From Alkanindiges illinoisensis DSM 15370 (GTDB lineage Bacteria > Pseudomonadota > Gammaproteobacteria > Pseudomonadales > Moraxellaceae), in the NCBI RefSeq assembly GCF_000619845.1, contig NZ_JHUX01000004.1, positions 325,190-357,189 on the forward strand: 32,000 bases of DNA, read 5' to 3'. Shown here piece by piece: positions 5,286 to 28,187 of this stretch (the first letter of the stretch is position 1; every line of letters begins with the position of its first letter). Below the pieces are notes generated by a model. That model saw only the letters and a list, made by a program, of their open reading frames with translations. It did not search any database and was not told the DNA's origin. The position numbers and the translations under genes were made by a program.

Positions 5286-5315
5286 TAAAAAGCTGGGCAA
5301 ATGCCCAGCTTTTTA
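5286..5315. terminator. Rho-independent terminator downstream of the MORN gene (bidirectional in form)
   Basis: aaaaAGCTGGGCAaatGCCCAGCTtttt: a 9-bp GC-rich stem with an A-run and a T-run. Confidence 0.75.
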
Positions 5316-5335
5316 TTCCCACCACACTACATAGG

Positions 5336-6109
5336 CTACCGTGAGTAATCAATAGAAGTAGGAATACCCTGCCAAGAAAGTTGAACATTAATAAGAGTAC
5401 CTTCTTCTGCAACCCTGCCATCTGGATAGATTACCTTACCTTGTGTTGTCATCTGCCCATTTACAAAATATCCTTCGTAAATTAACCCATCAGGTCGAGT
5501 ATATTTACCATATTTAGGACATTTATTTTCAAATGTACCTACGAAGAAGCTACCATCTGGCAGAATAACTTTTCCCTGTTGAAAATCACCCTCCTTAAAG
5601 AAGCCCTCATATCGAAATCCGTCAACTGTTACCAAAATACCTTCTCCTGTTGGAGCATTATCTAAAAAATCGCCTGTATAGACATCTCCATTTTTCAAAG
5701 TCAGCTTTCCTTTACTACTCTCTTTACTTATAGTGGTGTAGTTTTCATACATTGTTCCATCAACATCAATTATTTTTACAGGGTCTTTAAATTTATTATC
5801 TATGAACTCTGCAACAAATTTACTTCCATCAGATAACGTAATTATATTCTTTCCATTCATTTGACCTTTTGCAAAGCTCCCATTAACTAAGGCATACAAC
5901 TGCTCACCTTGATACCAAAGTAATATTCCACTTCCTGCTACATAACCATCTTTACAAGTTCCTGACCACTTCATCTCAGTAACTATAGAATCAATCTTTT
6001 TAGCTTTACAATTATTGCTACTATCAGCCAACCAACCCTCTTCAGCATACGCCTGTGTCATTATAATTAGATACAAAATAAAGCCCAAAATCCTTTTGAT
6101 ATCTTTCAT
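5336..6109 (-). CDS. Secreted MORN-repeat protein
   Basis: Signal peptide MKDIKRILGFILYLIIMTQAYA, then tandem Y-x-G-x-F-x-x-G-x-x-x-G-x-G MORN-like units (YTGDFLDNAPTGEGILV, YEGFFKEGDFQQGKVIL, FVGTFENKCPKYGKY, YEGYFVNGQMTTQGKVIY). The gene is AT-rich. Confidence 0.7.
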   Translation of the reverse strand: MKDIKRILGFILYLIIMTQAYAEEGWLADSSNNCKAKKIDSIVTEMKWSGTCKDGYVAGSGILLWYQGEQLYALVNGSFAKGQMNGKNIITLSDGSKFVAEFIDNKFKDPVKIIDVDGTMYENYTTISKESSKGKLTLKNGDVYTGDFLDNAPTGEGILVTVDGFRYEGFFKEGDFQQGKVILPDGSFFVGTFENKCPKYGKYTRPDGLIYEGYFVNGQMTTQGKVIYPDGRVAEEGTLINVQLSWQGIPTSIDYSR

Positions 6110-6412
6110 CTATGACTATTCCAATAATTGAATGCCTTATTAATCATGTCAGTTTTTTTATTAAATCCTGCTATAACCTTACCACAGACTCACAAATTAG
6201 TATTATGCTCAATAACCTCACAACAATAGGCTCATATGTGTTTTTTTACCTAATGTTGCCCTATAAGCTAACAATGGCACCTGTTTTGCTTCAAGGCTAC
6301 ACTTTTTAATTTTCTAATATTCCCTAAAAAAGCAGTAGGATATTCCTTTTATTGGTAAATTAAATTCCTTAAATTATTAATGGTATAAATAACTCGTGGC
6401 AATGAAGAGGCA

Positions 6413-6440
6413 TAAAAAAACCACGCTTTAACACGTGGTT
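6413..6440 (-). terminator. Rho-independent terminator downstream of the integrase remnant
   Basis: The minus strand reads AACCACGtgttaaagCGTGGTTTTTTTT. Confidence 0.6.
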
Positions 6441-6491
6441 CAGTTTCAGTCTAAAATACAATTCAGCCAATCTCACTCTACCGATATAGGC

Positions 6492-6853
6492 CTAACAAAG
6501 TAACTTGAGAGAATCCAGATAATCAGCCCAAGCCTGCATCATTTCTCGGCGCTTCACTAAATGCTTAGTGCAGTTATAGACATGGCCATGCATGTCTCGG
6601 ACTTGATGGACTAATTGCTGCTCAATGATTTCTATTGGGTATTTTAATACTTCTTCTAGGATGGTTCGGGCTGCGGCGCGAAAGCCATGACCACACACCT
6701 GCTCTGAGCTATACAGTCTAATCGCCATGTCTTGTTGTCCTGTGGATCAACTGATAAATATAAGCCACAACCATCAAAAAGTTTGATCGTTTTATCAGTT
6801 GCTTTGATGGTTCTAAGACGCGTATCAGTACGCGAGACAACGACTTTAAGCAT
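6492..6853 (-). pseudogene. Tyrosine recombinase (P4-type integrase) remnant with a large internal deletion
   Basis: Two overlapping ORFs lie in different frames. One holds the N-terminal DUF4102-like arm-binding segment (MLKVVVSRTDTRLRTIKATDKTIKLFDGCGLYLSVDPQDNKTWRL). The other holds the C-terminal catalytic end (HGFRAAARTILEE...QQLVHQVRDMHGHVYNCTKHLVKRREMMQAWADYLD, with the HxxR box and catalytic Tyr). About 280 aa of core are missing. The remnant lies next to the 3' end of tRNA-Arg. Confidence 0.8.
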
Positions 6854-7003
6854 TTTTACGATAAAAGCCTCATACCGCATCATATACTGCAAAAGAAGTT
6901 AGCTTACATTGGATAAGTTAGGTCAATATTAGACAATAAAGTTAAAAATTATTATATTTTTCAACGACTTTACTACCATTTTAGACTACTTTAGAAAAGT
7001 AGA

Positions 7004-7080
7004 TGGCGCGCCCAGAGAGATTCGAACTCCCGACCCCCAAGTTCGTAGCCTGGTGCTCTATCCAGCTGAGCTATGGGCGC
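7004..7080 (-). tRNA. tRNA-Arg (anticodon ACG)
   Basis: The reverse complement is GCGCCCATAGCTCAGCTGGATAGAGCACCAGGCTACGAACTTGGGGGTCGGGAGTTCGAATCTCTCTGGGCGCGCCA. It folds by eye into a full cloverleaf with loop CTACGAA and an encoded CCA. Confidence 0.9.
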
Positions 7081-7196
7081 GTCGTTTTGTGTCGCGCATT
7101 CTACAGTGCAGTTTGCGCCTCGTCAACTTCTTTTTAATTTTTGCTAACTATCTGTCGTTTTATTAAACACATCAAGTTTTGCAAACATTATAAAAG

Positions 7197-7287
7197 TGGC
7201 GGTGAGAGAGGGATTCGAACCCTCGATACCCATAACAGGTATGCGTCCTTAGCAGGGACGTGGTTTCAGCCACTCACCCATCTCACC
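7197..7287 (-). tRNA. tRNA-Ser (anticodon GCT), class II with a long variable arm
   Basis: The reverse complement is GGTGAGATGGGTGAGTGGCTGAAACCACGTCCCTGCTAAGGACGCATACCTGTTATGGGTATCGAGGGTTCGAATCCCTCTCTCACCGCCA. The anticodon loop is CTGCTAA. Confidence 0.9.
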
Positions 7288-7406
7288 GCAACGAGGTCGC
7301 CATATTACAAAAAGCTGGCCGCTTGAGCAAGCCCTCATTGATCAATATTCAGCCGCACTCAACATAAAACAATCATTAATGGCTAAATAAAGCACAACTT
7401 ATCGAT

Positions 7407-7655
7407 TTAAGGGGTAGTTTTGGCTTCCTGATTCACTTCATCCAGCAGCGCATCCGGATTTTCAACCTTAACGTCCTTATTTAAGCGCTCAATATATAGG
7501 TCATTTTCACTTTTATGTTTGTCACTAGCCTGTGCTTGCTGTACTGCAGGTGCATCGGTTGCCTTAATGGGTTCCTGTTTTTTATCACACCCTGTAAATG
7601 CCATGATTATAGTACCCACTAACAAACCCTGCCCTAAAATTTGCTTACTTATCAT
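7407..7655 (-). CDS. Small hypothetical lipoprotein
   Basis: 82 aa with a signal peptide and lipobox (LLVGTIIMAFTG-C). The mature part is acidic and lysine-rich. No family was recognised. Confidence 0.5.
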   Translation of the reverse strand: MISKQILGQGLLVGTIIMAFTGCDKKQEPIKATDAPAVQQAQASDKHKSENDLYIERLNKDVKVENPDALLDEVNQEAKTTP

Positions 7656-8161
7656 TTTTAAACCAACTCCATGAAAATTGAGATTGCATCTTGCAACATT
7701 ACCCTTATAAGCAGTTTTAGATCAGGCTAAACTGCTTGTTGACTATATCTTAACCTTGTTTGGGCAGACAGCTCAATTTTAAAACTACAAAAAATCACAA
7801 TTTAGTGAAGCACTTGGCAGAATTTCTTAGAAATATTGGCACATTTATCTATTGGGTGTATGCGTTTTTAATTGTCATCTTTTAAAGATAAATAACATGC
7901 TTATCACAAACACTTTATTGAGGCTGTATTAAGTAGCAATGATCTAAAAATATAATACTAAGCCTCACTGGCTTTTATTCAGCTTGGCCATAGGTTTAAT
8001 TTTTATCATTAACCAGCATAATTTTTTAATAAATAGGAATACTTAAGCCTCTAGCCTATAAATCGGTTATGCCTAAAATTGGCAGTAATAAACTTTGGCG
8101 CAACAAAAAAGCCTTGATGTATGGCATCAAGGCTTTTTGCAGATTCACTGGGAATCGAATT

Positions 8162-8246
8162 TGGTGCGGATGAGAGGACTTGAACCTCCACGTCTTGCGA
8201 CACTAATACCTGAAACTAGCGCGTCTACCAATTCCGCCACATCCGC
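8162..8246 (-). tRNA. tRNA-Leu (anticodon CAG)
   Basis: The reverse complement is GCGGATGTGGCGGAATTGGTAGACGCGCTAGTTTCAGGTATTAGTGTCGCAAGACGTGGAGGTTCAAGTCCTCTCATCCGCACCA. It is very close to the canonical gammaproteobacterial Leu-CAG. Confidence 0.9.
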
Positions 8247-8507
8247 ATGTAGTAGGTGCGTTATATTAGGAATAATTTAATGCATCGTCAAGTCACTCTG
8301 CTTAAAGCTTGAGCTAATAAGCAAGGGTTTGCCTTAAATTTAACCAAATCTTGCATTAAGAAGTTTAAACCCCATATAAAACCAGCTTGCACCTACAAAT
8401 TCAGCATGAATACAACAAACTGCAACTTGTCATCTTGAATTATCAATTTTAGTGTATGGTAGCAAGGTGAACTGATTTTCGTCATTAAAGCGTATAAAAG
8501 AGAACCT

Positions 8508-16335: not shown

Positions 16336-17345
16336 TAGGTGTTTAGTCCCACACTTTGATGGTGCAAAATTCTCACATGAATGGAAGGAGGCACTATGGG
16401 ACAAGTTTTACACGGCAGCGCCACAACGACACAGGCAATACGTCGAGCAATACAAAATAGTCAAGAAAGCTTAAGAGTCTTGGCCAAGCATTACAGCATC
16501 AATCAAAAAACAGTTGCAAAGTGGAAGAAGCGCACATCAGTCGTTGATAGAGCAACAGGGCCGAAGAATCCTCGCTCAAGTGTGTTATCGCCTGAAGATG
16601 AGGCAGCAATCGTTGCTTTTCGAAAACATACTTTGCTGCTGCTGAACGATTGCCTTTATGCGCTACAGCCGAGTATTCCTCATCTACCCGTTCCTCGCTA
16701 CACCGCTGCTTGCAACGGCATGACATCTCACAGTTGCCTGACGTCCATGGCGATCTTCCTGTCAAGAAGCGTTTCAAGAGCTACCCCATCGGCTACTTTC
16801 ATATCGACATCGCAGAGGTACAAACAGCACAGGGCAAGCTTTATCTCTTCGTCGCCATTGATCGCACGTCGAAGTTCGCATTCACCGAACTGCATGGCAA
16901 GGCTGGCAAGATGGCAGCCGCGCAGTTCCTGCGCAATCTGGTTGAGGCTGTACCCTACAGCATTCATACAGTACTGACGGATAACGGTATCCAGTTCACG
17001 AACCGCACCTGTGACCGCTATGCCTTTGAACACATATTTGACCGGGTTTGTGCTGAATATGGCATTAAACATCGGCTCACCAGGGTTAAGTATCCATGGA
17101 CCAACGGACAGGTTGAGCGCATGAACCGAACAATTAAGGAAGCCACCCTCAAACGGTACCATTACGATGACCACACTCAGCTACGCACTCACCTGACTGA
17201 ATTTATTAGCGCATACAACTTTGGCCGCAGGCTCAAAACACTAAAAGGGCTGACACCTTATGAATTCATCTGCAAACAGTGGACAGATGAACCTGAACGC
17301 TTCAAGATTGATCCGATCCATCAAATGCCGGGACTAAACACCTAG
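16336..17345 (+). mobile_element. IS481-family insertion sequence (about 1.0 kb) with a frameshifted transposase
   Basis: The terminal inverted repeats are TAGGTGTTTAGTCCC (16336-16350) and GGGACTAAACACCTA (17330-17344). They extend imperfectly to about 27 bp (..TTTGATGG shared). The interior encodes an IS481-type DDE transposase. Confidence 0.8.
16396..17345 (+). pseudogene. IS481-family DDE transposase split over two frames (-1 shift near 16684-16688)
   Basis: Frame A reads MGQVLHGSATTTQAIRRAIQNSQESLRVLAKHYSINQKTVAKWKKR...CLYALQPSIPHL. Frame B continues (T)RSSLHRCLQRHDISQLP...YPIGYFHIDIAEV...VLTDNGIQF...WTNGQVERMNRTIK (D, D, E). The junction is cat-cta-ccc-gtt. An AGGAGG RBS lies at 16386-16391. 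Confidence 0.8.
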
Positions 17346-17684
17346 ATATATTCTATGCTATTGAAATATATTTTATTTTAATAAGGTTTTACAATTACTC
17401 TTTTCCATCTTTAATATATTGCGAATAGTGAATCTTGGGATCATATCTAAGCCATGAAAAATATTAGTTTATTTTCAAAGTAATTCGTATACTTAATTTT
17501 TCTATAATCTTTTAATCTAGAACTAGTAATTTTAAATATATTTTTCTATAGTAAAATAAATATAACACCTCATCTTACTATAAGATTTAAGGCATTATAA
17601 CGACTTGCTAATTTACAGTTTTTTTAGAAAAATATTGTTAAACTAAAAAGAATCAAAAGATTCCTGCTGAGCTAGTTATTTTAC

Positions 17685-18854
17685 ATGTTTAAAACAATGC
17701 AAAAAAATTCCGATCTTAAGAGAGTTTTGATCATAACACGTAACTTACCACCTCTTATAGGCGGGATGGAACGCCTCAATTGGCACATGGCAGATGAACT
17801 CTCCAAATATTACTGTGTTAAAGTAATTGCTCCTACAGGCTCGGCTAACCTAAAACCAAAGCACTTAGATATGATTGAAGTACCTTTAGTGCCATTATGG
17901 CTATTTCTTATTCTTTCGCTCTGGGAAGCCATCAAAATTACACTACAATGGAAACCCGATATCATTCTTGCGGGTAGCGGATTAACTGCCTTAGCAGCAA
18001 AATTAAGCAGTATATTCTATACAAAGAGTAAATCCGTTGCTTATTTACATGGACTTGACATTACAGCAGATCATAGATTATATCGGCTAATATGGCTTCC
18101 CATATTGAGACAACTTGATCATGTCATTACAAATAGCAGTCCAACTTCACAACTGGTAAGCAATTTAGGTATTCCAGACACCCGTGTTAGTATTATTTTT
18201 CCAGGCGTTAACTTACCAAGAACAATCCAAACGCAAGCTCAAATAGAACAATTTCTACATAAATATCAATTACAAAATAAGCATATACTATTATCCGTAG
18301 GTCGACTGACCACTCGGAAAGGTATTCATGAATTTATTCAGTATGCTTTGCCTGATATTGTCAAAGCAATGCCAAATATAGTTCTTGTTATTATTGGAGA
18401 ATCACCAAAAAATGCCCTATTGGCTGAAACCCAAAGTAAAGAAAGTATTGAAGCAACTGTTTCGCAATTAGGCCTTCAAGAACATGTTAAATTCTTGGGA
18501 AAAATTGACGATCAATCTCTCTCGTATGCATATGAAAGCAGTCATGTACATGTATTTCCTGTACGCCATATTCCCAATGATCCTGAAGGCTTTGGTATGG
18601 TAGCTATTGAGGCCGCTGCTCATGGTTTACCTACCGTTGCATTTGCAACAGGAGGCGTGGTAGACGCTATTTCTGATGGGAAATCAGGATATTTAGTTCG
18701 CTCTGAAGATTATTTATTATTAACTCAAGCTGTGATCAAGGCGCTTGCCTTGAATAATTTTTGGAAAAAGTCTTGCCAAACATTTGCAAAAAATTTTACA
18801 TGGGAAAATTTTGGAAATGATATTAAAACAAAGTTAAATAATATTTTAAATTAA
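17685..18854 (+). CDS. GT4-family (GT-B fold, Glycos_transf_1) glycosyltransferase
   Basis: 389 aa. The C-terminal half carries the retaining GT4 E-x7-E region (PNDPEGFGMVAIEAAAHGLPTVAFATGGVVDAISDGKSGYLV). Confidence 0.8.
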   Translation: MFKTMQKNSDLKRVLIITRNLPPLIGGMERLNWHMADELSKYYCVKVIAPTGSANLKPKHLDMIEVPLVPLWLFLILSLWEAIKITLQWKPDIILAGSGLTALAAKLSSIFYTKSKSVAYLHGLDITADHRLYRLIWLPILRQLDHVITNSSPTSQLVSNLGIPDTRVSIIFPGVNLPRTIQTQAQIEQFLHKYQLQNKHILLSVGRLTTRKGIHEFIQYALPDIVKAMPNIVLVIIGESPKNALLAETQSKESIEATVSQLGLQEHVKFLGKIDDQSLSYAYESSHVHVFPVRHIPNDPEGFGMVAIEAAAHGLPTVAFATGGVVDAISDGKSGYLVRSEDYLLLTQAVIKALALNNFWKKSCQTFAKNFTWENFGNDIKTKLNNILN

Positions 18855-18877
18855 ATTCAAGTAGTGGAGCTTACTTT

Positions 18878-19846
18878 ATGATTGAAGATGAAAAAATTGG
18901 GGTAGCAATTATAACTTATAATAGACCAGATGGCTTAGAAAAATTATTTAATTCTTTACCACATGAATTTATTGACTGCTTTATCATTATAAATGATGGA
19001 AAACCAATAGTTTCTGATATTATTCCAGCTCAATATATATCCAACAACATTCATAATTTAGGTGTTGGAAAATCAAAAAATAAAGCTCTAAAATACTTAA
19101 TGGATAATCAGATGGATCATTACTTCATTTTTGAAGATGATGTTCATATAATAAACCAAGAGATATTTCATGCTTATATTCAAGCAAGTAAAACAACAGG
19201 AATTCATCATTTTAACTCTGCTTTACACGTAGCTGAAAATAAGAAGAGCAATGGTCAACCAAATCCTCTTATAAAAATTATATACCCGAACGATGTCAAA
19301 ATTTCATTTTATTTTACTTGCTGTGGTGTATTTTCATATTATTCAAAAAAATGTCTTCTTACTGTTGGATTAATGGATGAACAGTTTTTTAATGCAGCTG
19401 AACACATAGATCATACTCTAAGATGCTCTCAAATGAATATGCATTCTGACTTTTGGTATTTTGCAGATATATCAGATTCTTATATATATTTGAAAGATAC
19501 ATATAATCAAGAAAACTATCAATCAGTAATATTAGTAAATAGTGACTCATGTCAAGTAATCAAAAATGCTAAAATACGTTTTAACTTAAAATATCAAATT
19601 AATTCTGTTAAAGAAATAGAAATAAATAGTCTCTTTAAATTTATAAATAATTTAAATACTCTTTATAACAAAGAGAGAAAACAGAACGAAGAATTCAACC
19701 TAATAAAAAAAAACCTGAAGGAATTAATTAGAAAATTTCCTATTATATTTGGTTTTAAACTAATTCATGACTTAAATAGAATAATAATAAAGTGCTTTCA
19801 TGGATTAAAAAAAACTCTATTAAATATTAAGAAAACTCCACCCTAA
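18878..19846 (+). CDS. GT-A fold (GT2-like) glycosyltransferase, very AT-rich
   Basis: The N-terminus IGVAIITYNRPDGLEKLFNSL and the acidic motif YFIFEDDVHI (DxD-like) resemble GT2. The K/N/I-rich C-terminal third has no recognisable similarity. Confidence 0.5.
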   Translation: MIEDEKIGVAIITYNRPDGLEKLFNSLPHEFIDCFIIINDGKPIVSDIIPAQYISNNIHNLGVGKSKNKALKYLMDNQMDHYFIFEDDVHIINQEIFHAYIQASKTTGIHHFNSALHVAENKKSNGQPNPLIKIIYPNDVKISFYFTCCGVFSYYSKKCLLTVGLMDEQFFNAAEHIDHTLRCSQMNMHSDFWYFADISDSYIYLKDTYNQENYQSVILVNSDSCQVIKNAKIRFNLKYQINSVKEIEINSLFKFINNLNTLYNKERKQNEEFNLIKKNLKELIRKFPIIFGFKLIHDLNRIIIKCFHGLKKTLLNIKKTPP

Positions 19847-20718
19847 ATACCATCTTTTATTCCCAAAACTAACGATTTGATTTGTCCTAATTTATCCTTT
19901 TTCACTAGACAGATGATTATAAATTGATAAATTAGACCTAAAAAAAACTCTTTTGCTGCAAATATTTTTGGCACATAAGGCTCTTTTAATAGATACAATG
20001 TATTTCTAATTCGAAAATATCTTCTGAAAGCGGAGTGTATTGTAATGCTTTTACCGAACACTTGAATATTATAATCACCTATTCTATGCTTCATTGTAGC
20101 TTTATTTGAAATATAGCAATGTAATCCCTTGGCTTTTGCTCTAAAACACCATTCGATATCTACATAATCAATAAAATAGTTTGCTTTCATAAAGCCGATA
20201 CGTCTTAATACATTAACTTCAACGTACATTCCAGATGAAATAATCAAGCTAGCTCTTCGCGGCTGTTTAATATTAGAAACGTCAATAGTCTTGCGAAAAC
20301 CATATTTGTTAACAGATGTTATCTTATAAAAAAAACTATATTCCTTATCAAACAACCTTGGGCCTATGGCAGCGATATTTGCATCAATATAATTTCTTAC
20401 ATAAGTATAATCGCTAGCAATAAAATTAATAAAATTACGACTAATCATGCTATCTTGATCAAAGAAAACAATGTAACGAGCTCCTGATTGAATCGCCCTT
20501 TTTATACCGACATTCTGAGCATAAGCAATTCCCTTATTACTTTCCAAGTAAATAGTTTCAGCTTTTTTTATGCTATCTAACATACAGGCATTTTTTGAAG
20601 CATTATCAACCAAAATTACCCTGACACTTTGCTCAGATAGCTGTGTAATTAATGTAGATAGATTCTCATGTTTTGGATTGAACGACACAATCACTGCAAA
20701 AATATTCATTTCAATCAT
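19843..20718 (-). CDS. GT2 glycosyltransferase (WbbL/rhamnosyltransferase-like subfamily)
   Basis: IFAVIVSFNPKHENL...VILVDNASKN...IVFFDQDS show the typical GT2 Rossmann start and DxD region. The start overlaps the upstream gene's stop by 4 bp. Confidence 0.75.
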   Translation of the reverse strand: MIEMNIFAVIVSFNPKHENLSTLITQLSEQSVRVILVDNASKNACMLDSIKKAETIYLESNKGIAYAQNVGIKRAIQSGARYIVFFDQDSMISRNFINFIASDYTYVRNYIDANIAAIGPRLFDKEYSFFYKITSVNKYGFRKTIDVSNIKQPRRASLIISSGMYVEVNVLRRIGFMKANYFIDYVDIEWCFRAKAKGLHCYISNKATMKHRIGDYNIQVFGKSITIHSAFRRYFRIRNTLYLLKEPYVPKIFAAKEFFLGLIYQFIIICLVKKDKLGQIKSLVLGIKDGI

Positions 20719-21617
20719 TTTGGATATTTAAAAGCTGCTCCAGCGCCCTTTAACATACTCCTAGCCTGTGTTTTTCTATCTATAGAAAAGATTAAATAAA
20801 CTATAAAAGTAAGTATCAACTTAATGATTGCCCAAAATTTCCATGTCAAAGGAACATATTTTCTAAAGAGCAAAAGAATAGTATTTCTAAATAAATAAAA
20901 ATGCCTAAATGCAGAACGTATGGGCCAAACTTTCCAACCAAATAGCCAGAATTTTAAACTGCTTTCACCCATTTGATGATAAAATACAGCGGTTGGAATC
21001 CCATATAAATGATAACCAGCATTTAGTACTCTAAAAGACCATTCTGTATCAATATGATCAATAAAAAAGTCCTGATCTAGCGCACCCAATTGTGTAAATA
21101 AATTAGCACGCATGAATGTCCCACTACCATTTATATTTGTACACTTAACTGGCTGTATTGAGCCAGATTCTGGATAAATTCTACTCCATAATCCATTACG
21201 CATTTGATGAAAGCCATGCTGCTTCTGAGTTTTAAAATCTATTAATTTTGGACCAACACAACCAACTTTACTACCATTCTCCTCCAATTGATTGAAGTAT
21301 TTATAAAGCTGATTGATTGCATCAGTTGCTGGCACGCTATCCTGATCCAATAAAAGAATAAACTCTAAAGTTTTGTGCATCTTTATTGCATGATTGACGC
21401 CAATATTTAAAGCCGTTGCTAATCCAAGATTCTCATTATTATTAACTAAATAAATATTATTTCTTTTTTGGCTAATTTTGCTCAAGCGCGTAATATCTTG
21501 AGCATTAGATCCATTATCTACAATAATCCAGATAATTTCTCCTAAACTATGCATTTGTTGAGTTAATAATTCAAATGATGGATTATAGGTTACTGTAATC
21601 GCAGCAATATTATTCAT
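20715..21617 (-). CDS. GT2 glycosyltransferase (WbbL/rhamnosyltransferase-like subfamily), paralogous in architecture to the next gene
   Basis: IAAITVTYNPSFELL...IVDNGSN...LLLDQDS...IDHIDTEWSFR. It has 4-bp overlaps with both neighbours. Confidence 0.75.
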   Translation of the reverse strand: MNNIAAITVTYNPSFELLTQQMHSLGEIIWIIVDNGSNAQDITRLSKISQKRNNIYLVNNNENLGLATALNIGVNHAIKMHKTLEFILLLDQDSVPATDAINQLYKYFNQLEENGSKVGCVGPKLIDFKTQKQHGFHQMRNGLWSRIYPESGSIQPVKCTNINGSGTFMRANLFTQLGALDQDFFIDHIDTEWSFRVLNAGYHLYGIPTAVFYHQMGESSLKFWLFGWKVWPIRSAFRHFYLFRNTILLLFRKYVPLTWKFWAIIKLILTFIVYLIFSIDRKTQARSMLKGAGAAFKYPK

Positions 21618-23056
21618 AATACACGCCCATAGTCATCTTTCAACCGAACAATATCATCCTCACCTAAATAAGCACCTGACTGAATTTCTATCAGCTCCAA
21701 AGGAATACTTCCCGGATTTTCTAGACTATGAATTGTACCAATTGGAATATAGGTTGACTCATTCTCAGAAATAAAGTATTTCTCATCTCCTCTAGTTACT
21801 TTAGCTGTACCCTTTACTACGATCCAATGCTCTGCGCGATGATGATGTAACTGCAAAGATAGTTTTGACTTTGGATTAACAGTAATTCGCTTCACTTGAT
21901 AACGTTCACCTACATCAATTGAGTCATATTTGCCCCAAGGCCTTATGACTTCTCGGTGGATAGATAGCTCTGTCCTTTGATATCGGGTTAAGTCTTCTAC
22001 AATCTTCTTCATTAATTGTGATTCTGTTTTATTTGCTACCAGAATAGCATCTTTGGTTTCAACAACAATCAAATCATCTACGCCAAGCACTGTAACTAAC
22101 CGACTTGAAGCATGCACATAGTTATTTTGACCTTGCTCTATTAATACATCACCAAAAACCACATTCTGTTGCTCATCTTTGATACTGGACTCCCATAATG
22201 ACTCCCAAGATCCAAGATCATTCCAACCGGCCTCTAGGCGAACTACGGCACCAATTGTCGTGTGCTCCATCACAGCATAATCAATTGAATCCTCTGGACA
22301 ATCTTTAAAGGCTTCAGGATTTATACGTATAAAATCTAAATCTGCTTGGCACTGCATAAATGATTGCTTGCAGCTTGCCAGAATTTCTGGTTGATATTTT
22401 TTCACCTCATTGAGAAAGCTATTTGCCCCAAATAGAAACATACCGCTGTTCCATAAATACGACTGGCTCTCCAGATAATCTTTTGACGTTGCTAAGTCTG
22501 GCTTTTCCACAAAATGGGCTAACTGATAAGCCTTTCTATCCTCTAACATCTGACCCAATTTAATATAGCCATAGCCTGTATGCGCGCAATATGGTGTTAC
22601 TCCAAACACAACAAGCATACCCTGCTGCACAACAGTCAATGCAGATAAAATACTGCGATGAAATTGAGGGATATCTACAATATGATGATCTGATGCCAAA
22701 ACTAATAAGGCAGGATTTTTCTCTAAATATAATGCTTGTGCCTGCAATGCCGCTAATGTAATGGCTGGTGCAGTATTTTTACCTACAGGCTCTAGCAGAA
22801 TAGAAGCTTTTTCTATACCAATCTGTCGCAATTGCTCTGCAACAATAAATCGATGCTCCTCATTACAAATTATAATGGGTGAAGTCATCGGAATGTCCAG
22901 ATTGTCTAACCGTTTTAATGTTAATTGTAACATGGACCATTCTGGATCAATTAGCCGTAGAAACTGTTTGGGGTAGGATTTTCTAGACAATGGCCATAAG
23001 CGTGTACCGGAACCACCGGCCAATATAACGGGTGTAAGTATCCCTTTTTCATCCAT
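21614..23056 (-). CDS. manC: Bifunctional mannose-1-phosphate guanylyltransferase / mannose-6-phosphate isomerase (type II PMI-GMP)
   Basis: 480 aa. It has the N-terminal nucleotidyltransferase motif (PVILAGGSGTRLWPLSR.SYPKQF) and a C-terminal cupin PMI domain (RPWGKYDSIDVGERYQVKRITVNPKSKLSLQLHHHRAEHWIVVKGTA). Confidence 0.9.
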   Translation of the reverse strand: MDEKGILTPVILAGGSGTRLWPLSRKSYPKQFLRLIDPEWSMLQLTLKRLDNLDIPMTSPIIICNEEHRFIVAEQLRQIGIEKASILLEPVGKNTAPAITLAALQAQALYLEKNPALLVLASDHHIVDIPQFHRSILSALTVVQQGMLVVFGVTPYCAHTGYGYIKLGQMLEDRKAYQLAHFVEKPDLATSKDYLESQSYLWNSGMFLFGANSFLNEVKKYQPEILASCKQSFMQCQADLDFIRINPEAFKDCPEDSIDYAVMEHTTIGAVVRLEAGWNDLGSWESLWESSIKDEQQNVVFGDVLIEQGQNNYVHASSRLVTVLGVDDLIVVETKDAILVANKTESQLMKKIVEDLTRYQRTELSIHREVIRPWGKYDSIDVGERYQVKRITVNPKSKLSLQLHHHRAEHWIVVKGTAKVTRGDEKYFISENESTYIPIGTIHSLENPGSIPLELIEIQSGAYLGEDDIVRLKDDYGRVL

Positions 23057-23062
23057 GAAAAA

Positions 23063-24769
23063 TTATCCTAATGACAATATTTTATTACACCCGGCCACAG
23101 CAGACTCTCTATGTGCAATAATAATTAATGTCTTTTTACCATTTAACTCATTAATAGCTGCATTTACTGCCGCTTCCGTTTCTGCATCTAGTGCGCTGGT
23201 GGCTTCATCCATAAGCAATACAGGGGGATCACGGTATAGTGCACGTGCTATGCCAATCCGCTGACGTTGTCCCCCAGAAAGTAATACACCTCGTTCACCA
23301 ACAGTGGTGTAATAACCCTGATGTAATTCACTAATTATAAAATCATGTATTTGTGCAGCTTTAGCCGTTCTTACTACGGCATCCATATCAATATTTTCTT
23401 GGGGCACCCCAAAAGCAATATTTGCTGCTACACTGGCATCTGCTAGATAAATATGTTGTGGCACATATCCAATAGATTGCTGCCAACCAGTAACATTATC
23501 AGCAGTGATTGGAACATCATCAATTAATAATTGTCCCAGTTGTGGTGTTAATAAACCTAACAGAATATCCATTAATGTGCTTTTGCCAGAACCGCTTTTA
23601 CCCACTATTCCTAAGCTGCTATTGACCGGAATAGTTAAATTAACATGTTGTAGTATCTCTTTATGTTGACTACCAGGATAAGCATAGCTTACATCCATTA
23701 ACTGAATATCACGCTGTGGGATTAACGGTGCCATCTGATTAATCTTAGCCAACAAGGGTAATGAAAGATCACGATGAATATTTTGCAGTGTTGCCCCTGC
23801 AAAACGCATTCGAGCAAAAGCACGATAAATAATTTGGGCAGCTGGTAATATGCGATATGCTGCAAATCCGTATAAACCTAATACTGGCAATATATGTGCA
23901 ATATCATTACTTTGATGAATTAAAAGAAGTGCCAGTAAAATTAACCCAGTATATCCTGTTGCTTCAACAAGAAATAAAGGCACTTGACTTAATGTCTCAT
24001 TAGCTGCTAAATGCCTTGCAAAAATTCGAGAAGAACGATTAAACCGCTCCATATAAGCTGAAGCAGAATGAGTAATTTTTACGTCTTTAATGCCGCTTAG
24101 TGCTTCTTGGCAAGCTATAAACCGCTCTTTATTCGCTGTATGTAATTCTAAACCAATTTTGGTTAAATGCTTTCTTACTAGCCAATAAATTAGACCATAC
24201 AAGGAACCCACTATAAGCATTAAACTAAATGCCATAACCGGATTATATATAAACAGAAGTGCAAGCATTGCCAGAACAATAAATCCTTGACTCAGCATTT
24301 GCAAAAGCGGCTGCAACACATTGCCAAGCAAGTGGTCTACTTCCGATAAAATATTTTGGTTTAATTCTGCACTATTTCTCTGCAAGAAAAAAATATATGG
24401 CTGCTGAAGGTATACAGACAGAAGACGAAAACTAAAATAATAACGTTGTAAATTGGCAAAACGATTTAAGGTATGGATCGTAATGGATTTAAAGAGCGAT
24501 GAAAAAAGTACTATAAAGATAGAAAATATACCCAAAACCAAGATAAAGCTTTGTTTATTATTGAAAGAAAAGAAATTATAAATATAAGCCAGTATGGCAT
24601 TATCATGAATAACATCTGGCCTAGCAAGCACTGCAAGAAATGGCATAATAGAAACAACGCCAGCTGTTTCCATACCTGCCATGACTAATACCAAGATAAA
24701 TACAAGCAGTGCTTTTCTTTTCTCCATTGGTGTGAGTATGTGCCATAACTTTTTAAGTGATTCAAGCAT
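23063..24769 (-). CDS. Fused TMD-NBD ABC exporter (MsbA/PglK-like half transporter)
   Basis: 568 aa. A six-TM type I exporter domain is followed by an NBD with Walker A (GKSGSGKST), signature (LSGGQRQR) and Walker B (VLLMDEATSALD). Confidence 0.85.
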   Translation of the reverse strand: MLESLKKLWHILTPMEKRKALLVFILVLVMAGMETAGVVSIMPFLAVLARPDVIHDNAILAYIYNFFSFNNKQSFILVLGIFSIFIVLFSSLFKSITIHTLNRFANLQRYYFSFRLLSVYLQQPYIFFLQRNSAELNQNILSEVDHLLGNVLQPLLQMLSQGFIVLAMLALLFIYNPVMAFSLMLIVGSLYGLIYWLVRKHLTKIGLELHTANKERFIACQEALSGIKDVKITHSASAYMERFNRSSRIFARHLAANETLSQVPLFLVEATGYTGLILLALLLIHQSNDIAHILPVLGLYGFAAYRILPAAQIIYRAFARMRFAGATLQNIHRDLSLPLLAKINQMAPLIPQRDIQLMDVSYAYPGSQHKEILQHVNLTIPVNSSLGIVGKSGSGKSTLMDILLGLLTPQLGQLLIDDVPITADNVTGWQQSIGYVPQHIYLADASVAANIAFGVPQENIDMDAVVRTAKAAQIHDFIISELHQGYYTTVGERGVLLSGGQRQRIGIARALYRDPPVLLMDEATSALDAETEAAVNAAINELNGKKTLIIIAHRESAVAGCNKILSLG

Positions 24770-24778
24770 TGCAGCCCC

Positions 24779-25627
24779 TTACTCACCCTTATACATTAGT
24801 GCAGTTACTTGCTCTGAAATCAGTCCCATTAGAAAAATCATTACACTTCCTGTATAAAGCAATGCACTCATATTGGTAAAACGGTTGAACTCATAAAGAG
24901 TATAACCATACCAACTAGATGCCATCAAAAACAATATAGTGGCAATTGGCAAGAACATTTTAAGTGGAGAAAATAATGTTGCAATTTTAAAAATAATAAG
25001 AAAAAAACGAATGCTATCTTTTACTGGATGGATATGGCTCTTACCAATGCGTTTAGCTGCATGAATCGGCACATAAGCAACCGAATAACCCGCTCTAAAA
25101 AATGCCATTGTACTTGTTGTAGGATAGGAAAAACCATTCGGCAGTAAATACAGAAACTCTCTAAATTTATTAGCATTTACTGCTCTGAAACCAGAAGTTA
25201 AATCCTCTATAGGATGCTCGGTCATATAGGTTGCAAGCCTATTATACAATTGATTGGCTATACTCCGACCTATACTGGCTTGTGAACCTCTTTGCCGCGC
25301 TCCAACTACAAGGTCATATCCTTGGTTCATTTTCTCTAGTAAAAGAACAATATCTGCTGGATCATGTTGTCCATCGGCGTCCATAAATATAATGACCTCA
25401 CCAGTAGCTACTCTTGCTCCTGTTTTAATTGCTGCGCCATTGCCCTTAGGATAAGGATGAGACACCACATGTGCACCCGCTTGCTCAGCAAGCTGTAAAG
25501 TTTGGTCTCTAGAACCATCATTAATTACAATTATTTCTGCATCTGCATATATTTTTTTAATTTGTCTCACAGTTTGGCCAATTGCACCAGCTTCATTTTT
25601 CGCAGGTAAAACTATACTTAACTTCAT
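24779..25627 (-). CDS. Membrane-anchored GT2 polyprenol-phosphate glycosyltransferase (DPM1/GtrB/ArnC-like)
   Basis: 282 aa. The catalytic domain reads MKLSIVLPAKNEAGAI...IIVINDGSRDQT...IIFMDADGQHDP. Two C-terminal TM helices follow (FFLIIFKIATLFSPLKMFLPIATILFLMA, LLYTGSVMIFLMGLISEQV). Confidence 0.8.
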   Translation of the reverse strand: MKLSIVLPAKNEAGAIGQTVRQIKKIYADAEIIVINDGSRDQTLQLAEQAGAHVVSHPYPKGNGAAIKTGARVATGEVIIFMDADGQHDPADIVLLLEKMNQGYDLVVGARQRGSQASIGRSIANQLYNRLATYMTEHPIEDLTSGFRAVNANKFREFLYLLPNGFSYPTTSTMAFFRAGYSVAYVPIHAAKRIGKSHIHPVKDSIRFFLIIFKIATLFSPLKMFLPIATILFLMASSWYGYTLYEFNRFTNMSALLYTGSVMIFLMGLISEQVTALMYKGE

Positions 25628-25633
25628 TATGCT

Positions 25634-27559
25634 TTACTTATCCTTATGGTAAACATGCATTTTATCAGCCTCCATATCTGCTTGTATATTCTTCCTTAAA
25701 TCCTCTGCAATACGCTTGTACATTACCTCATCCTTTAACTGCTTTTGATAAATAAGCTCAATTTTTGTTAAAAGCTGTAAAGCTAATTTATAATAACCTT
25801 TATTTCCTAGATCAGCGACCATAGCTAATGCAGCACTAACATCTCGATATTGAACGGCTGCTCGCAAATAATTCTGATATGCTTTGTGTGGTAGCTCTAA
25901 TGCAGCAAATAATTGTGCTTGCAGATAATTCGATAATGCATAAAAATTAGGGTAATCTCTGTAAGATTTATTATATTTTATAAGATTAGTGAGAAGCTCA
26001 GTCATTTCTTGAGCATATAATCTAGTAAGTTTTTGATCCTTAATGATTTTATCAACCAAGCCACGTAATCCCCAAATAGCCGCACCATCAGCATTTTGTT
26101 TTAATATCTGGTGTTGAAGCCTTAAAAAATCTTGTTTACTAACCTTTCCGATATCTATTTTTTGTTTTAACAGTTGAATAAGTAAACTTGAATCAGGATG
26201 GCAAGCTATTGCTTGCTCTAACACTTGATTAGCTTCTTGAGATCGACCATGTTGCATCAATATTTCGGCTAATTTACTCTGAGCACGTACTGACTCAGGA
26301 TTATTCTGTGCCCAATAAACCTGCAGTTTTGTTGTATCTGACCATAAAATCACACGTTGCCATGTCATCCATGCTAATATTATTAATATTAGACAACTAA
26401 TGAAAATAACAGAACTCGATTTAGTTCTTTCAGATAAATTGTATAAACCTGCAGCTATAGGTAAAAATAAAAATATTGCTGCTACATAATTTCGGTGCTC
26501 AAAATATAACTCTAAACCAATGACACTTGATTCAATTAAGTGGGCTGCAAAAAAGAATAAAATTGCTAAACAAATTAGTGGATATTTTTTTCTAATAGCA
26601 AATGCAAAACCTAATAAAAAAATTATAAAGATAATCGATATTAATGTAGTAACTGGGTTTAACCACCCCTTAGAAATATAGTAACCATCTTGAAATAAAC
26701 CATAACCTTCTATACGTGGAATGAATAGCTGATATAAATAACTACAAATGATTCTTGCTTCGCTCCATAAACGCTCAGCCTGATTAAATGAACGATATGG
26801 CCAAGGATTTTCTGAAAAATCAATATAATGAAATAATAATGCTGCGATTACCGTTGATGGCATCCACAAACATATTGCACGCCAATACCAAATAGGTTTA
26901 TTAACCTTAGTAGGATTACAGAATTCTATAATTAAAATTAAAAGTGGTAATAAAGCACCATTTTCCTTGCTATAAGTTGCTAATATACTACTAATACTGA
27001 TGGATAAAGTCATTATAATATAAGCATGTAAGGGTCGTCTAGTTAATAAAGCTCTTCCTCTTAAATATCCAATCATACCTAACAGGCTAAATAATAACGG
27101 TAACTGTGCCATCCGTTGTATAACATATAACGTTGTAGAAACAAAGAAAGGATGTAACAACCAAAAGCCACATGATAAAAGTGCAATCCATGTTGCCTTT
27201 TTTTCTATGTATCCATAACTTAATAAAATTAAACGTATTGTCCAGTAGATTAAAATGCCACATGATAAATGAATAGCTAAATTGACTAATTTAAAAGGAT
27301 AAGCGCTTATTGGCCATGAATAAGCCTGAGGAATAAATGTGGCTAACGCAATGGGACGTCCTGTAGGTCCAGCAAAACCACTAGTTATAAATTGTTGGAT
27401 ATCTTTCCATTGTCCAGAATCCCTATAGTGAGCTAGACCCGCGAGATTAGATTGATCATCAAATAAAAACCCACCTTGAAGGCCTGGCCAATAAACTAAT
27501 CCAGTAAGTAAAATTAATATAAATAAACCAGTTGTTGGAATAATGCGAGTCATCAACAT
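25634..27559 (-). CDS. GT-C fold polytopic membrane glycosyltransferase with a C-terminal TPR domain (TfpW / TMTC / DUF1736-like); candidate pilin glycosyltransferase
   Basis: 641 aa. About 11-13 hydrophobic segments span residues 1-400. An FLFDD motif (D34-D35, codons at 27455-27460) lies in the first predicted periplasmic loop. LELYFEHRNY is present near the last TM segments. Residues from about 410 to 630 are helical TPR-like repeats. It is the first gene downstream of pilA. Confidence 0.65.
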   Translation of the reverse strand: MLMTRIIPTTGLFILILLTGLVYWPGLQGGFLFDDQSNLAGLAHYRDSGQWKDIQQFITSGFAGPTGRPIALATFIPQAYSWPISAYPFKLVNLAIHLSCGILIYWTIRLILLSYGYIEKKATWIALLSCGFWLLHPFFVSTTLYVIQRMAQLPLLFSLLGMIGYLRGRALLTRRPLHAYIIMTLSISISSILATYSKENGALLPLLILIIEFCNPTKVNKPIWYWRAICLWMPSTVIAALLFHYIDFSENPWPYRSFNQAERLWSEARIICSYLYQLFIPRIEGYGLFQDGYYISKGWLNPVTTLISIIFIIFLLGFAFAIRKKYPLICLAILFFFAAHLIESSVIGLELYFEHRNYVAAIFLFLPIAAGLYNLSERTKSSSVIFISCLILIILAWMTWQRVILWSDTTKLQVYWAQNNPESVRAQSKLAEILMQHGRSQEANQVLEQAIACHPDSSLLIQLLKQKIDIGKVSKQDFLRLQHQILKQNADGAAIWGLRGLVDKIIKDQKLTRLYAQEMTELLTNLIKYNKSYRDYPNFYALSNYLQAQLFAALELPHKAYQNYLRAAVQYRDVSAALAMVADLGNKGYYKLALQLLTKIELIYQKQLKDEVMYKRIAEDLRKNIQADMEADKMHVYHKDK

Positions 27560-27628
27560 ATATTTATAATCTTAAAATTTATAGAACAATCACTTTAAGT
27601 ACATTTTTTTCTTAAGATGATCTTAAAT

Positions 27629-27657
27629 AAGAAGAGGCTCCTATAGAGCCTCTTCTT
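27629..27657 (-). terminator. Hairpin (probable partial terminator/attenuator) between pilA and the glycosylation operon
   Basis: AAGAAGAGGCTCctataGAGCCTCTTCTT is a 12-bp perfect stem. The trailing minus-strand sequence ATTTAAG is only weakly U-rich, so read-through is plausible. Confidence 0.55.
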
Positions 27658-27684
27658 ATTTTATAGGTCGTTAATACTGATTAA

Positions 27685-28092
27685 TTACAGTACGCCTTTA
27701 GGTAAATATTTAGCAATACCACCATTACTAGTAACTTTTATTGAACCATTTCTATCTGTCTTAGCAACTACTTGTTTACTTTCAATTTGTTTAGCAACTC
27801 CAGAAGATGCATAGGTAATAGTAACAGTACATTCACCTGTAGCACTTGGAGCACCAGCTGTTACTTTTACACTTGCAGCATATTTACCGTGTGCACTGCT
27901 ACTACCACAATCTCCAGTTTGCAAGCTGTCGCCGATATCAGCTTTTAGGCCATCAGCTAATGCAAAACCTTCAGCAGCTTGTGATCGTGCAATATAATCT
28001 TGGTAAGCAGGAATCGCAAAAGCAGCCAGAATACCAATGATCGCTACAACGATCATCAATTCAATTAACGTAAAACCCTTTTGTGCGTTCAT
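27685..28092 (-). CDS. pilA: Type IVa major pilin
   Basis: [38 protein letters not shown] has the class III signal peptide, the prepilin peptidase site and Glu5. The start was set at ATG 28090-28092, preceded by AGGAGA. The track ORF start at 28176 adds 28 spurious residues. 135 aa precursor. Confidence 0.9.
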
Positions 28093-28170
28093 ATAAATTC
28101 TCCTAGGAATACAAAAATAGTAGTGTTGGCTTGTTGTTTTGACCAACGCTCTAACACACACGCTGTTATA

Positions 28171-28187
28171 TTGCATTTGTCATGCCA
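28171..28187 (-). promoter_or_regulatory. Sigma-54 (-24/-12) promoter of pilA
   Basis: The minus strand reads TGGCATGACAAATGCAA, against the consensus TGGCACG-N4-TTGCW with correct GG/GC spacing. It lies about 80 nt upstream of the pilA ATG. Confidence 0.7.

Follow-up and report, generated by a model that had tools for sequence, protein, structure and literature searches.

What follows the major pilin gene pilA in Alkanindiges illinoisensis DSM 15370, and what might it add to the pilin? We analysed a 32,000-nt stretch of this genome (the window, to which all coordinates refer unless a related locus is named), in which the locus in question lies within positions 17346-28187. Here pilA is followed, on the same strand, by the gene for a 641-aa protein that appears to combine a membrane glycosyltransferase (GT) of the GT-C fold with a periplasmic tetratricopeptide repeat (TPR) domain, and then by a compact set of glycan genes. 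We read the locus, with a probability of roughly 0.7, as a pilin-dedicated periplasmic O-glycosylation system resembling that of TfpW in Pseudomonas aeruginosa and made of three components: a lipid-sugar synthase, a flippase and a GT-C transferase.

Glycosylation of pilins influences how pili function, how the immune system recognises them and how susceptible bacteria are to phages. To our knowledge, only Wzy_C enzymes (TfpO, TfpM, PglL and PglS) have been studied in Acinetobacter and its relatives and used there for bioconjugate vaccines. An earlier note on this DNA had described the block behind pilA as an acquired island carrying a different kind of pilin glycosylation, with the implication that such an arrangement had no precedent. 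That implication is not upheld, because TfpW is already known to follow pilA. TfpW of P. aeruginosa (group IV, Pa5196/PA7; AAM52060.1) is a 646-aa GT-C enzyme whose N-terminus is cytoplasmic, with 11 transmembrane (TM) helices by prediction, a DDX motif in periplasmic loop 1 that is essential, and a large TPR domain in the periplasm; its gene lies immediately 3' of pilA, and the enzyme adds α-1,5-linked oligomers of D-arabinofuranose (D-Araf) to Ser/Thr of the pilin (TfpW preprint). The same preprint, from 2020, places putative homologues of TfpW behind pilA in Acinetobacter venetianus (WP_130134296.1), Teredinibacter, Azotobacter, P. indica and Kingella. A GT-C/TPR gene after pilA is thus a known kind of arrangement, noticed before in Acinetobacter; what would be new here is a hexose-type donor pathway with a glycan cassette of its own.

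The GT-C/TPR protein and its conserved partners

Sequence searches with the 641-aa protein (25634-27559, minus strand) recovered its repeats. Its Pfam matches are TPR_14 and TPR_19 only, its profile matches TPR structures, and it has no NCBIfam match; phmmer against the PDB and a full-length family profile likewise returned TPR proteins only, and a profile of the TM domain alone found no match in the PDB. Pfam searches of 67 diverse family members gave TPR families only, plus DUF6056 in two members, with no PMT, PMT_2 or DUF1736 match in any of the 67. A database protein 100% identical to the 641-aa open reading frame (ORF) is labelled 'tetratricopeptide repeat protein', and JGI labels one homologue 'protein O-mannosyl-transferase'. 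The family is very large and essentially uncharacterised, with 16,002 representative clusters at E<1e-3 and 4,312 (50% identity) at E<1e-30. A phage origin was considered and rejected, as no relatives were found in viral contigs; no PADLOC defence-system model matches this protein, the GT2, the GT4 or the 322-aa ORF described below.

Structure modelling provides the main support for a glycosyltransferase. An AlphaFold2 model built from a 104-sequence alignment reached a pLDDT of 95.9 and replaced a poor first model (32 sequences, >50% identical; pLDDT 75.8). The helices of the good model, hydropathy and the positive-inside rule together give a topology of 11 TM helices, N-in and C-out, with three long periplasmic loops (residues 29-86, 245-302 and 340-365) and a periplasmic TPR solenoid at residues ~409-640. 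Loop 1 contains the DD motif F-L-F-D34-D35-Q. D34, R68, H97, P137, Q148, R149, K198 and R356 are invariant in all family alignments, and E343, H355 and Y358 are invariant or at least 90% conserved, as is D35, which is invariant in two alignments and reaches at least 90% in the other two. All of these residues are on the periplasmic side, in loops or at periplasmic helix ends, and in the model this distribution fits an active site that faces the periplasm with the acidic pair in loop 1. The family also shows a nearly invariant Y274-X6-P281 and a consensus Y352-X7-P360-X6-P367, with alanine at position 360 in the window protein.

In Foldseek searches with the good model, the TM part matched the protein O-mannosyltransferase Pmt4 (9i5k_A) at a probability of 1.00, with TM-scores of 0.35 (query-normalised) and 0.43 (target-normalised); STT3 chains were matched with the first, poorer model at a probability of 1.00 and TM-scores of 0.32-0.37. 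The E-values of these GT-C matches are weak (~1e-2) and their TM-scores modest because TPR matches dominate the full-length search. Taken together, the modelled fold and topology support the assignment of the 641-aa protein as a GT-C-fold membrane glycosyltransferase with a periplasmic TPR domain.

Six bp further downstream on the same strand, a gene at 24779-25627 encodes a 282-aa GT2, which its sequence places in a clear class: the polyprenyl-phosphate glycosyl synthases, with GtrB, ArnC, DPMS and AglJ as relatives. Its PDB matches are ArnC (1.7e-15), GtrB sll0501 (8e-12, full length) and DPMS (5e-11). It matches Glycos_transf_2 in Pfam, and its top NCBIfam families are AglJ, PpgS and dolichyl-phosphate-hexose transferase, all below their cut-offs (for AglJ, 128 bits against 325). 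Two C-terminal hydrophobic TM segments (residues ~208-237 and 252-271) are visible in the hydropathy profile. Orthologues in Acinetobacter are 77-81% identical to it and those in Pseudomonas, Comamonas, Delftia and Tepidiphilus 63-76%, more than is found for the flanking core gene lemA.

After a gap of 9 bp, the minus-strand gene at 23063-24769 encodes a 568-aa half-size ATP-binding cassette (ABC) exporter, our candidate flippase. It aligns over its full length with PglK 5c73 (residues 5-566 against 2-554, 275 bits), and PglK is also its best NCBIfam family, at 352 bits and far below the 1000-bit cut-off.

Gene order in related loci and the predicted acceptor site

We compared the locus with 80 related loci from Acinetobacter, Aquirhabdus, Moraxella, Pseudomonas and its relatives, Comamonas, Delftia, Acidovorax, Rhodocyclaceae, Cellvibrio, Ectothiorhodospira, Halothiobacillus and others. 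The order pilA, GT-C/TPR gene, ArnC/GtrB/DPMS-like GT2 gene recurs among them. In 60 of the 71 loci that could be evaluated, the first GT-C gene is preceded on its own strand by a pilin gene ending no more than 400 nt upstream; in 61 of 76, the 3 kb downstream contain an orthologue of the 282-aa GT2. The gene right after this GT2, often overlapping it, encodes a PglK-like ABC exporter in 16 of the 61 (nearly all Acinetobacter), a GT4 in 17, a methyltransferase in four, DegT in two, and Wzx, Gmd, a TIGR01556 GT2 or Ugd in one each, so that 43 of the 61 have an ABC, GT4 or other glycan gene next to the GT2. Where at least 8 kb of downstream sequence was available (n=55), an extra cytoplasmic GT4 or GT2 was present in 44 loci and Wzx or an ABC exporter in 37; Glf (15 loci), Ugd, Gmd, DegT aminotransferases and methyltransferases are further recurrent neighbours. 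Beyond what the 2020 preprint reported, we thus observe a recurrent pilA/GT-C/GT2 order in a module that usually continues with a flippase (ABC or Wzx) and cytoplasmic GTs.

No initiating phosphoglycosyltransferase, Wzy or Wzz was found among the recurrent clusters of the related loci. No D-Araf genes (DPPR synthase, DprE1, DprE2) were found in the window or in the related-locus neighbours examined, and no GtrA-like protein or TfpX in the window or the related loci examined. Members without the GT2 (L040, L060 and L054) were checked for D-Araf genes and contained no DprE1 or DprE2; their neighbours were an RNA ligase, Wzx, a deacetylase, a GT2, parts of a TRAP transporter, a DAO oxidoreductase and a methyltransferase.

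Several variants of the module were seen in passing. Tandem pairs of GT-C/TPR paralogues follow pilA in about 20 of the 80 loci (L004, L005 and L051-L078; for example L004 3197-7056 and L074 7929-11926). In an uncultured gammaproteobacterium (L054 4399-9890), seven consecutive pilin genes lie upstream of the GT-C gene, and this array may represent pilin variants served by one glycosyltransferase. Glf and a GT4 occur together in 15 related clusters (L003, L007, L022, L030, L049 and 10 more), which points to galactofuranose in the glycans of those species and would parallel TfpW's D-Araf, likewise a furanose.

The remaining genes of the Alkanindiges locus form its distal part. ManC (a bifunctional mannose-1-phosphate guanylyltransferase / mannose-6-phosphate isomerase; 21614-23056, minus strand) begins 6 bp after the ABC gene and scores 701.7 bits in TIGR01479, whose cut-off is 373. 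It overlaps by 4 bp the gene for a 300-aa GT2 (20715-21617, minus strand), which in turn overlaps by 4 bp the gene for a 291-aa GT2 (19843-20718, minus strand; G+C 0.31); at 214 and 246.5 bits, both exceed the cut-off of 200.6 for the TIGR01556 'rhamnosyltransferase' subfamily. Orthologues of the 300-aa protein (44-50% identity) were found in L020, L024, L044, L072 and L076 (Pseudomonas, Tepidiphilus and others), and the 291-aa protein has only weak relatives (23-36% identity) in other loci.

Two plus-strand genes converge on this series, the first with a 4-bp overlap. Both had been taken for GT genes, and this stands for one of them. The 389-aa GT4 (GT-B fold; 17685-18854) matches Glycos_transf_1 and Glyco_transf_4, and its orthologues, present in at least 23 loci (298-441 bits, 42-56% identity; Acinetobacter, Pseudomonas, Comamonas, Acidovorax and Tepidiphilus), make it a conserved companion of the module, typically at the distal end and convergent; like the 300-aa GT2, it travels with the module across genera. 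The 322-aa orphan ORF (18878-19846; G+C 0.25) yielded only a sub-threshold Glycos_transf_2 match (residues 9-85, E = 0.04), with no PDB or NCBIfam match and no homologue in the 80 related loci; its N-terminal ...VAIITYNRP... and an FEDD motif suggest that it may be a GT-A-like protein. On recheck of the sequence, the gene coordinates, the 125-bp spacer between pilA and the GT-C gene, and the gaps and overlaps that the earlier note listed were all correct.

Wzy_C (PF04932) had no match in any of the 19 window proteins scanned; the same search did find Wzy_C and PglL_A in the related locus L008, and tblastn of a related-locus PglL against the window revealed no PglL remnant. The claim that the window holds no Wzy_C enzyme is therefore borne out by both searches. 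The further claim that the GT-C system stands in place of TfpO applies to the window of this genome and not to the group, since several Acinetobacter carry Wzy_C/PglL_A alongside the GT-C module. Loci L010, L011, L013 and L016 hold both systems back to back (for example L011 5739-9934), with one strand carrying bfr, a PglL-type Wzy_C gene and another pilin-like gene, a divergent one, and the other strand carrying pilA, GT-C, GT2 and ABC genes. In the window, an IS481-family insertion sequence (IS) between bfr and the GT4 gene occupies the position that a PglL-type Wzy_C gene has in Acinetobacter relatives (L008 18795-20510), and an IS-associated loss of pglL in Alkanindiges is possible.

The pilin gene itself (27685-28092, minus strand) encodes a 135-aa type IV major prepilin with Pfam Pilin and N_methyl matches. 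A promoter-like site of the sigma-54 type, TGGCATGACAAATGCA (28172-28187, minus strand; GG-N10-GC), lies ~80 nt upstream of its start codon, as read from the sequence, and several related loci have genes for PilS/PilR-type sigma-54 activators upstream of pilA. Between pilA and the GT-C gene, a hairpin with a 17-bp stem and a 3-nt loop (27625-27661, minus strand) has a folding energy of -26.5 kcal/mol and a z-score of -5.53, with none of 200 shuffled sequences equally stable; the earlier note had seen this hairpin correctly, and a simple terminator scan missed it because the U-tract sits within the stem. It is probably a terminator or attenuator that keeps expression of the accessory genes below that of the pilin.

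Mature PilA carries a Ser58-Ser60 cluster directly before G-K-Y and ends in ...KYLPKGVL, without a C-terminal Ser. Its only two cysteines (mature residues 56 and 80) flank the αβ-loop/first-strand region (C-G-S-S-S ... G-E-C). It is a member of a shorter pilin subtype of Moraxellaceae, shared with L001-L004, L006-L009 and L022, which has an αβ-loop disulfide, lacks the usual C-terminal disulfide loop and keeps the KYLPK motif. Most GT-C-linked pilins read '…NASAGLAxxTSITGNAV…' in the αβ-loop and end in '…KY(L/V)PSxCR'. Neisseria PilE, whose loop resembles that of most GT-C-linked pilins, is glycosylated at Ser63. When the window pilin was aligned with 60 GT-C-linked pilins, Ser/Thr proved enriched in the four positions preceding I(T/K)G(N/K)(A/Y)V. 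The last residue of these 60 is R in 33, S in five and T in two, and they mostly lack the C-terminal Ser/Thr extension of TfpO and TfpM substrates. In the TfpW substrate pilin, the main sites are Thr64 and Thr66, in the αβ-loop region (TfpW preprint). The enriched positions fall in this same loop, and for this reason Ser58-60 of mature PilA are the likeliest predicted glycan acceptors. A glycan seen on an Acinetobacter pilus by cryo-electron microscopy was considered as a precedent and set aside, because it is on the C-terminal Ser147 and of the TfpO type. The upstream pilin in 60 of 71 loci, the pairing of a GT-C protein with a polyprenyl-phosphate sugar synthase and the missing C-terminal Ser of PilA all support the view that the system is pilin-linked and mechanistically different from the Wzy_C kind.

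Proposed pathway, rival readings and origin of the locus

The pathway that we propose would run as follows. Transcription of pilA would start from the sigma-54-type promoter, and the hairpin would let a fraction of transcripts into the accessory genes. At the cytoplasmic face of the membrane, the 282-aa GT2 would, by homology of its enzyme class, load undecaprenyl phosphate (Und-P) to give an Und-P-sugar with a monophosphate linkage, and GDP-mannose would come from ManC. Before export, the lipid-linked sugar might then be lengthened by the GT4, the two TIGR01556 GT2s and possibly the 322-aa ORF, a step suggested by operon structure to which we give somewhat less than even odds. The PglK-like exporter would flip the lipid-linked glycan, and the 641-aa GT-C protein, with D34-D35 in the periplasm, would transfer it to Ser/Thr of the membrane-anchored pilin before assembly. 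The periplasmic TPR domain may dock the pilin, with the Ser58-Ser60 cluster of the αβ-loop as acceptor. The expected role would be to mask the pilus surface from pilus-specific phages and antibodies, and the distal GT cassette would be the exchangeable part that determines specificity. Pilin glycosylation by TfpW and TfpO is described in one source as protective against pilus-specific phages (10.1101/150227).

Several observations weigh against this reading. P. aeruginosa TfpW is the only characterised relative that we found, and we infer homology to it from architecture, gene context and the A. venetianus homologue of the preprint, the proteins being compared by description. In homologue searches started from the window protein, from a Pseudomonas member (L024) and from a Cellvibrionaceae member (L039), all the matches listed were closer relatives than TfpW, and the accessions given in the preprint were not among ten cluster hits looked up. 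The TM domain has no Pfam, NCBIfam or PDB sequence match, and Foldseek TM-scores rise only to 0.43; the YX6PFX7P motif of TfpW, proline-rich and in a late periplasmic loop, is not reproduced exactly, with a spacing that is similar without being the same. A pilin gene directly upstream is missing in about 11 of 71 loci. In a distant subgroup with tandem GT-C genes there are no cytoplasmic GTs nearby, and a minimal system would therefore work with single sugars. Few related loci have ManC, which makes mannose an improbable candidate for the conserved first sugar. Finally, we know of no bacterial precedent for the cytoplasmic extension of an Und-P-linked (monophosphate) sugar.

In its fullest form, the proposal would be a bacterial O-oligosaccharyltransferase pathway of a new class, in which an AglJ/GtrB-like GT2 primes Und-P, the GT4 and GT2s build a mannose-containing hetero-oligosaccharide on this carrier in the cytoplasm, the ABC exporter flips it and the GT-C/TPR protein transfers it en bloc to the αβ-loop. 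We put this form forward tentatively. As far as sequence can tell, extension of the Und-P-sugar before export is favoured by the coupling of the genes in operons and by the absence of a phosphoglycosyltransferase from related clusters. If true, the route would be a bacterial counterpart of the archaeal dolichyl-phosphate/AglB route, widespread next to pilA in Gamma- and Betaproteobacteria and equipped with exchangeable glycan cassettes.

The best-surviving rival, which we consider somewhat unlikely, holds that the GT2, ABC exporter and GT-C protein add one hexose, or a homopolymer made by the GT-C protein, to pilin Ser/Thr, as PMT/Ppm1 or TfpW do, and that ManC, the GT4, the TIGR01556 GT2s and the 322-aa ORF serve another glycan (lipooligosaccharide, capsule or general O-glycosylation). 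The conserved, contiguous GT-C, GT2 and ABC triad is an exact three-component extracytoplasmic system, TfpW uses single lipid-linked sugars, the distant subgroup has pilA, one or two GT-C genes and the GT2 without cytoplasmic GTs, and in Acinetobacter a PglL-type oligosaccharyltransferase adjoins the distal GT4, all of which this rival would explain. It sits less well with the many non-Acinetobacter loci in which the GT4 starts within a few bases of the GT2 stop or overlaps it, or with the GT4 orthologues that accompany the module in genera without an adjacent PglL; nor do the clusters encode what a separate pathway would require: an initiating phosphoglycosyltransferase, a ligase or a polymerase.

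A second rival concerns origin. The earlier note took the whole 10-kb block for a recently acquired genomic island that had displaced a TfpO-type gene, a view that we hold to be unlikely. Its factual basis is sound: the locus genes have a G+C of 0.25-0.39, against 0.45-0.51 for the flanking lemA, TPM364, RNase R and SpoT genes, orthologues of the distal genes are lacking in related loci, and the IS481-family element does bound the far end, on the bfr side (16336-17344, plus strand), with its right inverted repeat just before position 17346, where the note had set the start of the block. This element has imperfect 27-nt inverted repeats (85% complementary) and a transposase (NF033577) split over two frames, profile positions 2-119 lying in the ORF at 16381-16977 and 93-283 in that at 16650-17345; no target-site duplication is evident.

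Comparison of the bfr-to-pilA interval with Acinetobacter, which the earlier note had called for, showed the same module there, likewise between lemA and bfr. Synteny for the order lemA-TPM-TPM-pilA-GT-C-GT2-ABC extends to ~14 Acinetobacter loci, whose far end often consists of the GT4, a PglL-type Wzy_C gene and bfr. Identities to Acinetobacter (PilA 75%, GT-C 63%, GT2 77%) resemble those of the flanking core genes (lemA 70%, TPM 47-52%). Low G+C is a general trait of the cluster: it falls below the flanks in most hosts, yet tracks the host, from 0.33 to 0.66. With no Wzy_C remnant, and with no tRNA, integrase or direct repeats found flanking the block, 'horizontally acquired ~10-kb island' is too strong a description. 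From sequence comparison, the core (pilA, GT-C, GT2, ABC) looks ancestral to this Moraxellaceae lineage because the module shares its lemA...bfr position in Acinetobacter, and the exchanged part looks to be the distal cassette: the 291-aa GT2, the 322-aa ORF and possibly ManC and the 300-aa GT2. The 322-aa ORF and the two GT2s have a G+C of 0.25-0.32.

Elsewhere in the window, a second AT-rich stretch (4830-8300, G+C 0.33-0.42) looks like a decayed integrative element at tRNA-Arg. It contains a gene for a secreted MORN-repeat protein (5336-6109, minus strand) and overlapping fragments of a P4-type integrase (6492-6728 and 6656-6892, minus strand) that abut tRNA-Arg(acg) at 7004-7080, followed by tRNA-Ser(gct) at 7197-7287 and tRNA-Leu(cag) at 8162-8246. 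A homologue of AceI/BTP-family chlorhexidine efflux proteins (2794-3243, plus strand) lies beside a divergent LysR regulator gene (1818-2699, minus strand), an arrangement known for aceI/aceR in Acinetobacter.

Less probable still is a third rival, in which the GT-C/TPR protein is an oligosaccharyltransferase like STT3 or PglB that uses an oligosaccharide on undecaprenyl diphosphate (Und-PP) primed by a phosphoglycosyltransferase whose gene lies elsewhere, the GT2 serving only a periplasmic side-branch. Structurally, the TM domain has STT3 chains among its best matches, and PglK, the closest half-transporter, flips an Und-PP-linked oligosaccharide. TIGR01556 and GlfT1-like GT2s typically use polyprenyl-diphosphate-linked acceptors, and the tandem GT-C paralogues of ~20 loci could divide two roles between them. 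Set against this, no partner of the GT-C protein is better conserved or more tightly coupled to it than the GT2, which argues for a role of the GT2 in making the main donor; the top GT-C match of the good model is Pmt4, a monophosphate-donor enzyme; and no recurrent cluster has a phosphoglycosyltransferase.

It is very improbable that the GT-C/TPR protein is no pilin enzyme at all, acting instead on another periplasmic target (lipopolysaccharide core, lipid A as ArnT does, or another protein) or as a TPR scaffold in pilus biogenesis, with pilA adjacency reflecting co-regulation: GT-C enzymes with GtrB-like partners do commonly modify glycans, the pilus-assembly TPR protein PilF is among the structural and sequence matches of the TPR part and 11 of 71 loci have no upstream pilin, but same-strand pilin adjacency holds in the other 60 across two proteobacterial classes, some GT-C genes follow arrays of up to seven pilin genes (L054), and TfpW, the sole characterised protein of this architecture, is a pilin glycosyltransferase.

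The three-component pilin system that we favour would extend well beyond this genome: many environmental Acinetobacter, Alkanindiges, Pseudomonas, Comamonas, Delftia and Cellvibrio genomes encode a TfpW-like GT-C protein together with variable GT cassettes and a lipid-sugar synthase of its own. The donor of TfpW is an unusual pentofuranose, and a member of the hexose type whose operon is compact and self-contained would make a convenient model. It could reveal how a GT-C enzyme recognises a folded protein acceptor through TPRs and whether bacteria build oligosaccharides on a monophosphate carrier, and might offer a new enzyme class for glycoengineering.

Comparison with known systems

The closest likeness is to TfpW. 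In both cases the gene comes right after pilA and is co-oriented with it, the proteins are of similar length (641 and 646 aa) with 11 TM helices, N-in topology, a DD motif and C-terminal TPRs, the donor sugar sits on a polyprenyl monophosphate, and the acceptor is a Ser/Thr of the pilin αβ-loop region, both as predicted in the case of A. illinoisensis. The two differ in their accessory genes: the window lacks D-Araf genes, a GtrA-like protein and TfpX, and has a GtrB/ArnC/DPMS-like GT2, a PglK-like ABC exporter, ManC and four or five cytoplasmic GTs. With these in place of the D-Araf genes, the glycan would be hexose-based and probably heteromeric. The window pilin also differs in being the short variant, with an αβ-loop disulfide and without the C-terminal disulfide loop.

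The locus shares with other three-component systems (GtrA/GtrB/GtrC, ArnC/ArnEF/ArnT, CsbB/GtcA/YfhO and the pentofuranose system of Citrobacter youngae) a GT2 polyprenyl-phosphate synthase, a flippase and a periplasmic GT-C enzyme. Their acceptor is a glycan or lipid A, whereas here it would be a protein, the pilin; their flippases are GtrA, SMR or MATE proteins, whereas the candidate here is a PglK-type ABC exporter. The TPR domain of the GT-C protein and the extra cytoplasmic GTs of the operon are further differences.

The protein O-mannosyltransferases (PMT/POMT of family GT39, TMTC1-4 and actinobacterial Pmt with Ppm1) are likewise GT-C enzymes that move a sugar from a polyprenyl phosphate to protein Ser/Thr and have an acidic pair in the first lumenal or periplasmic loop; the TMTCs also have C-terminal TPRs, Pmt4 is the best GT-C structural match, and the window contains a DPMS-like partner and ManC. 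The 641-aa family differs from this group in having no PMT, PMT_2 or DUF1736 match and no MIR domain; ManC is not conserved in related loci, and the system appears dedicated to one adjacent substrate gene.

With the Wzy_C O-oligosaccharyltransferases of Moraxellaceae (TfpO, TfpM, PglL and PglS), the locus has in common a pilin-linked gene position and periplasmic transfer from a lipid-linked glycan. It differs in lacking Wzy_C and in a PilA without a C-terminal Ser/Thr acceptor; moreover, the units that those enzymes transfer are Und-PP-linked, belong to capsule or O-antigen and are made elsewhere, whereas a lipid-sugar synthase is encoded in this locus itself.

The Agl pathway of Haloferax volcanii, in which AglJ primes dolichol phosphate, extension takes place in the cytoplasm and the GT-C enzyme AglB performs the transfer, is archaeal, N-linked and directed at an S-layer protein, and lipid-linked extension is in our locus a predicted step only. 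Its composition is nevertheless the same as that proposed here: a synthase that charges a polyprenyl phosphate (Und-P in our case), cytoplasmic GTs, a flippase and a GT-C transferase, with no phosphoglycosyltransferase, and AglJ is itself the best NCBIfam match of the 282-aa GT2.

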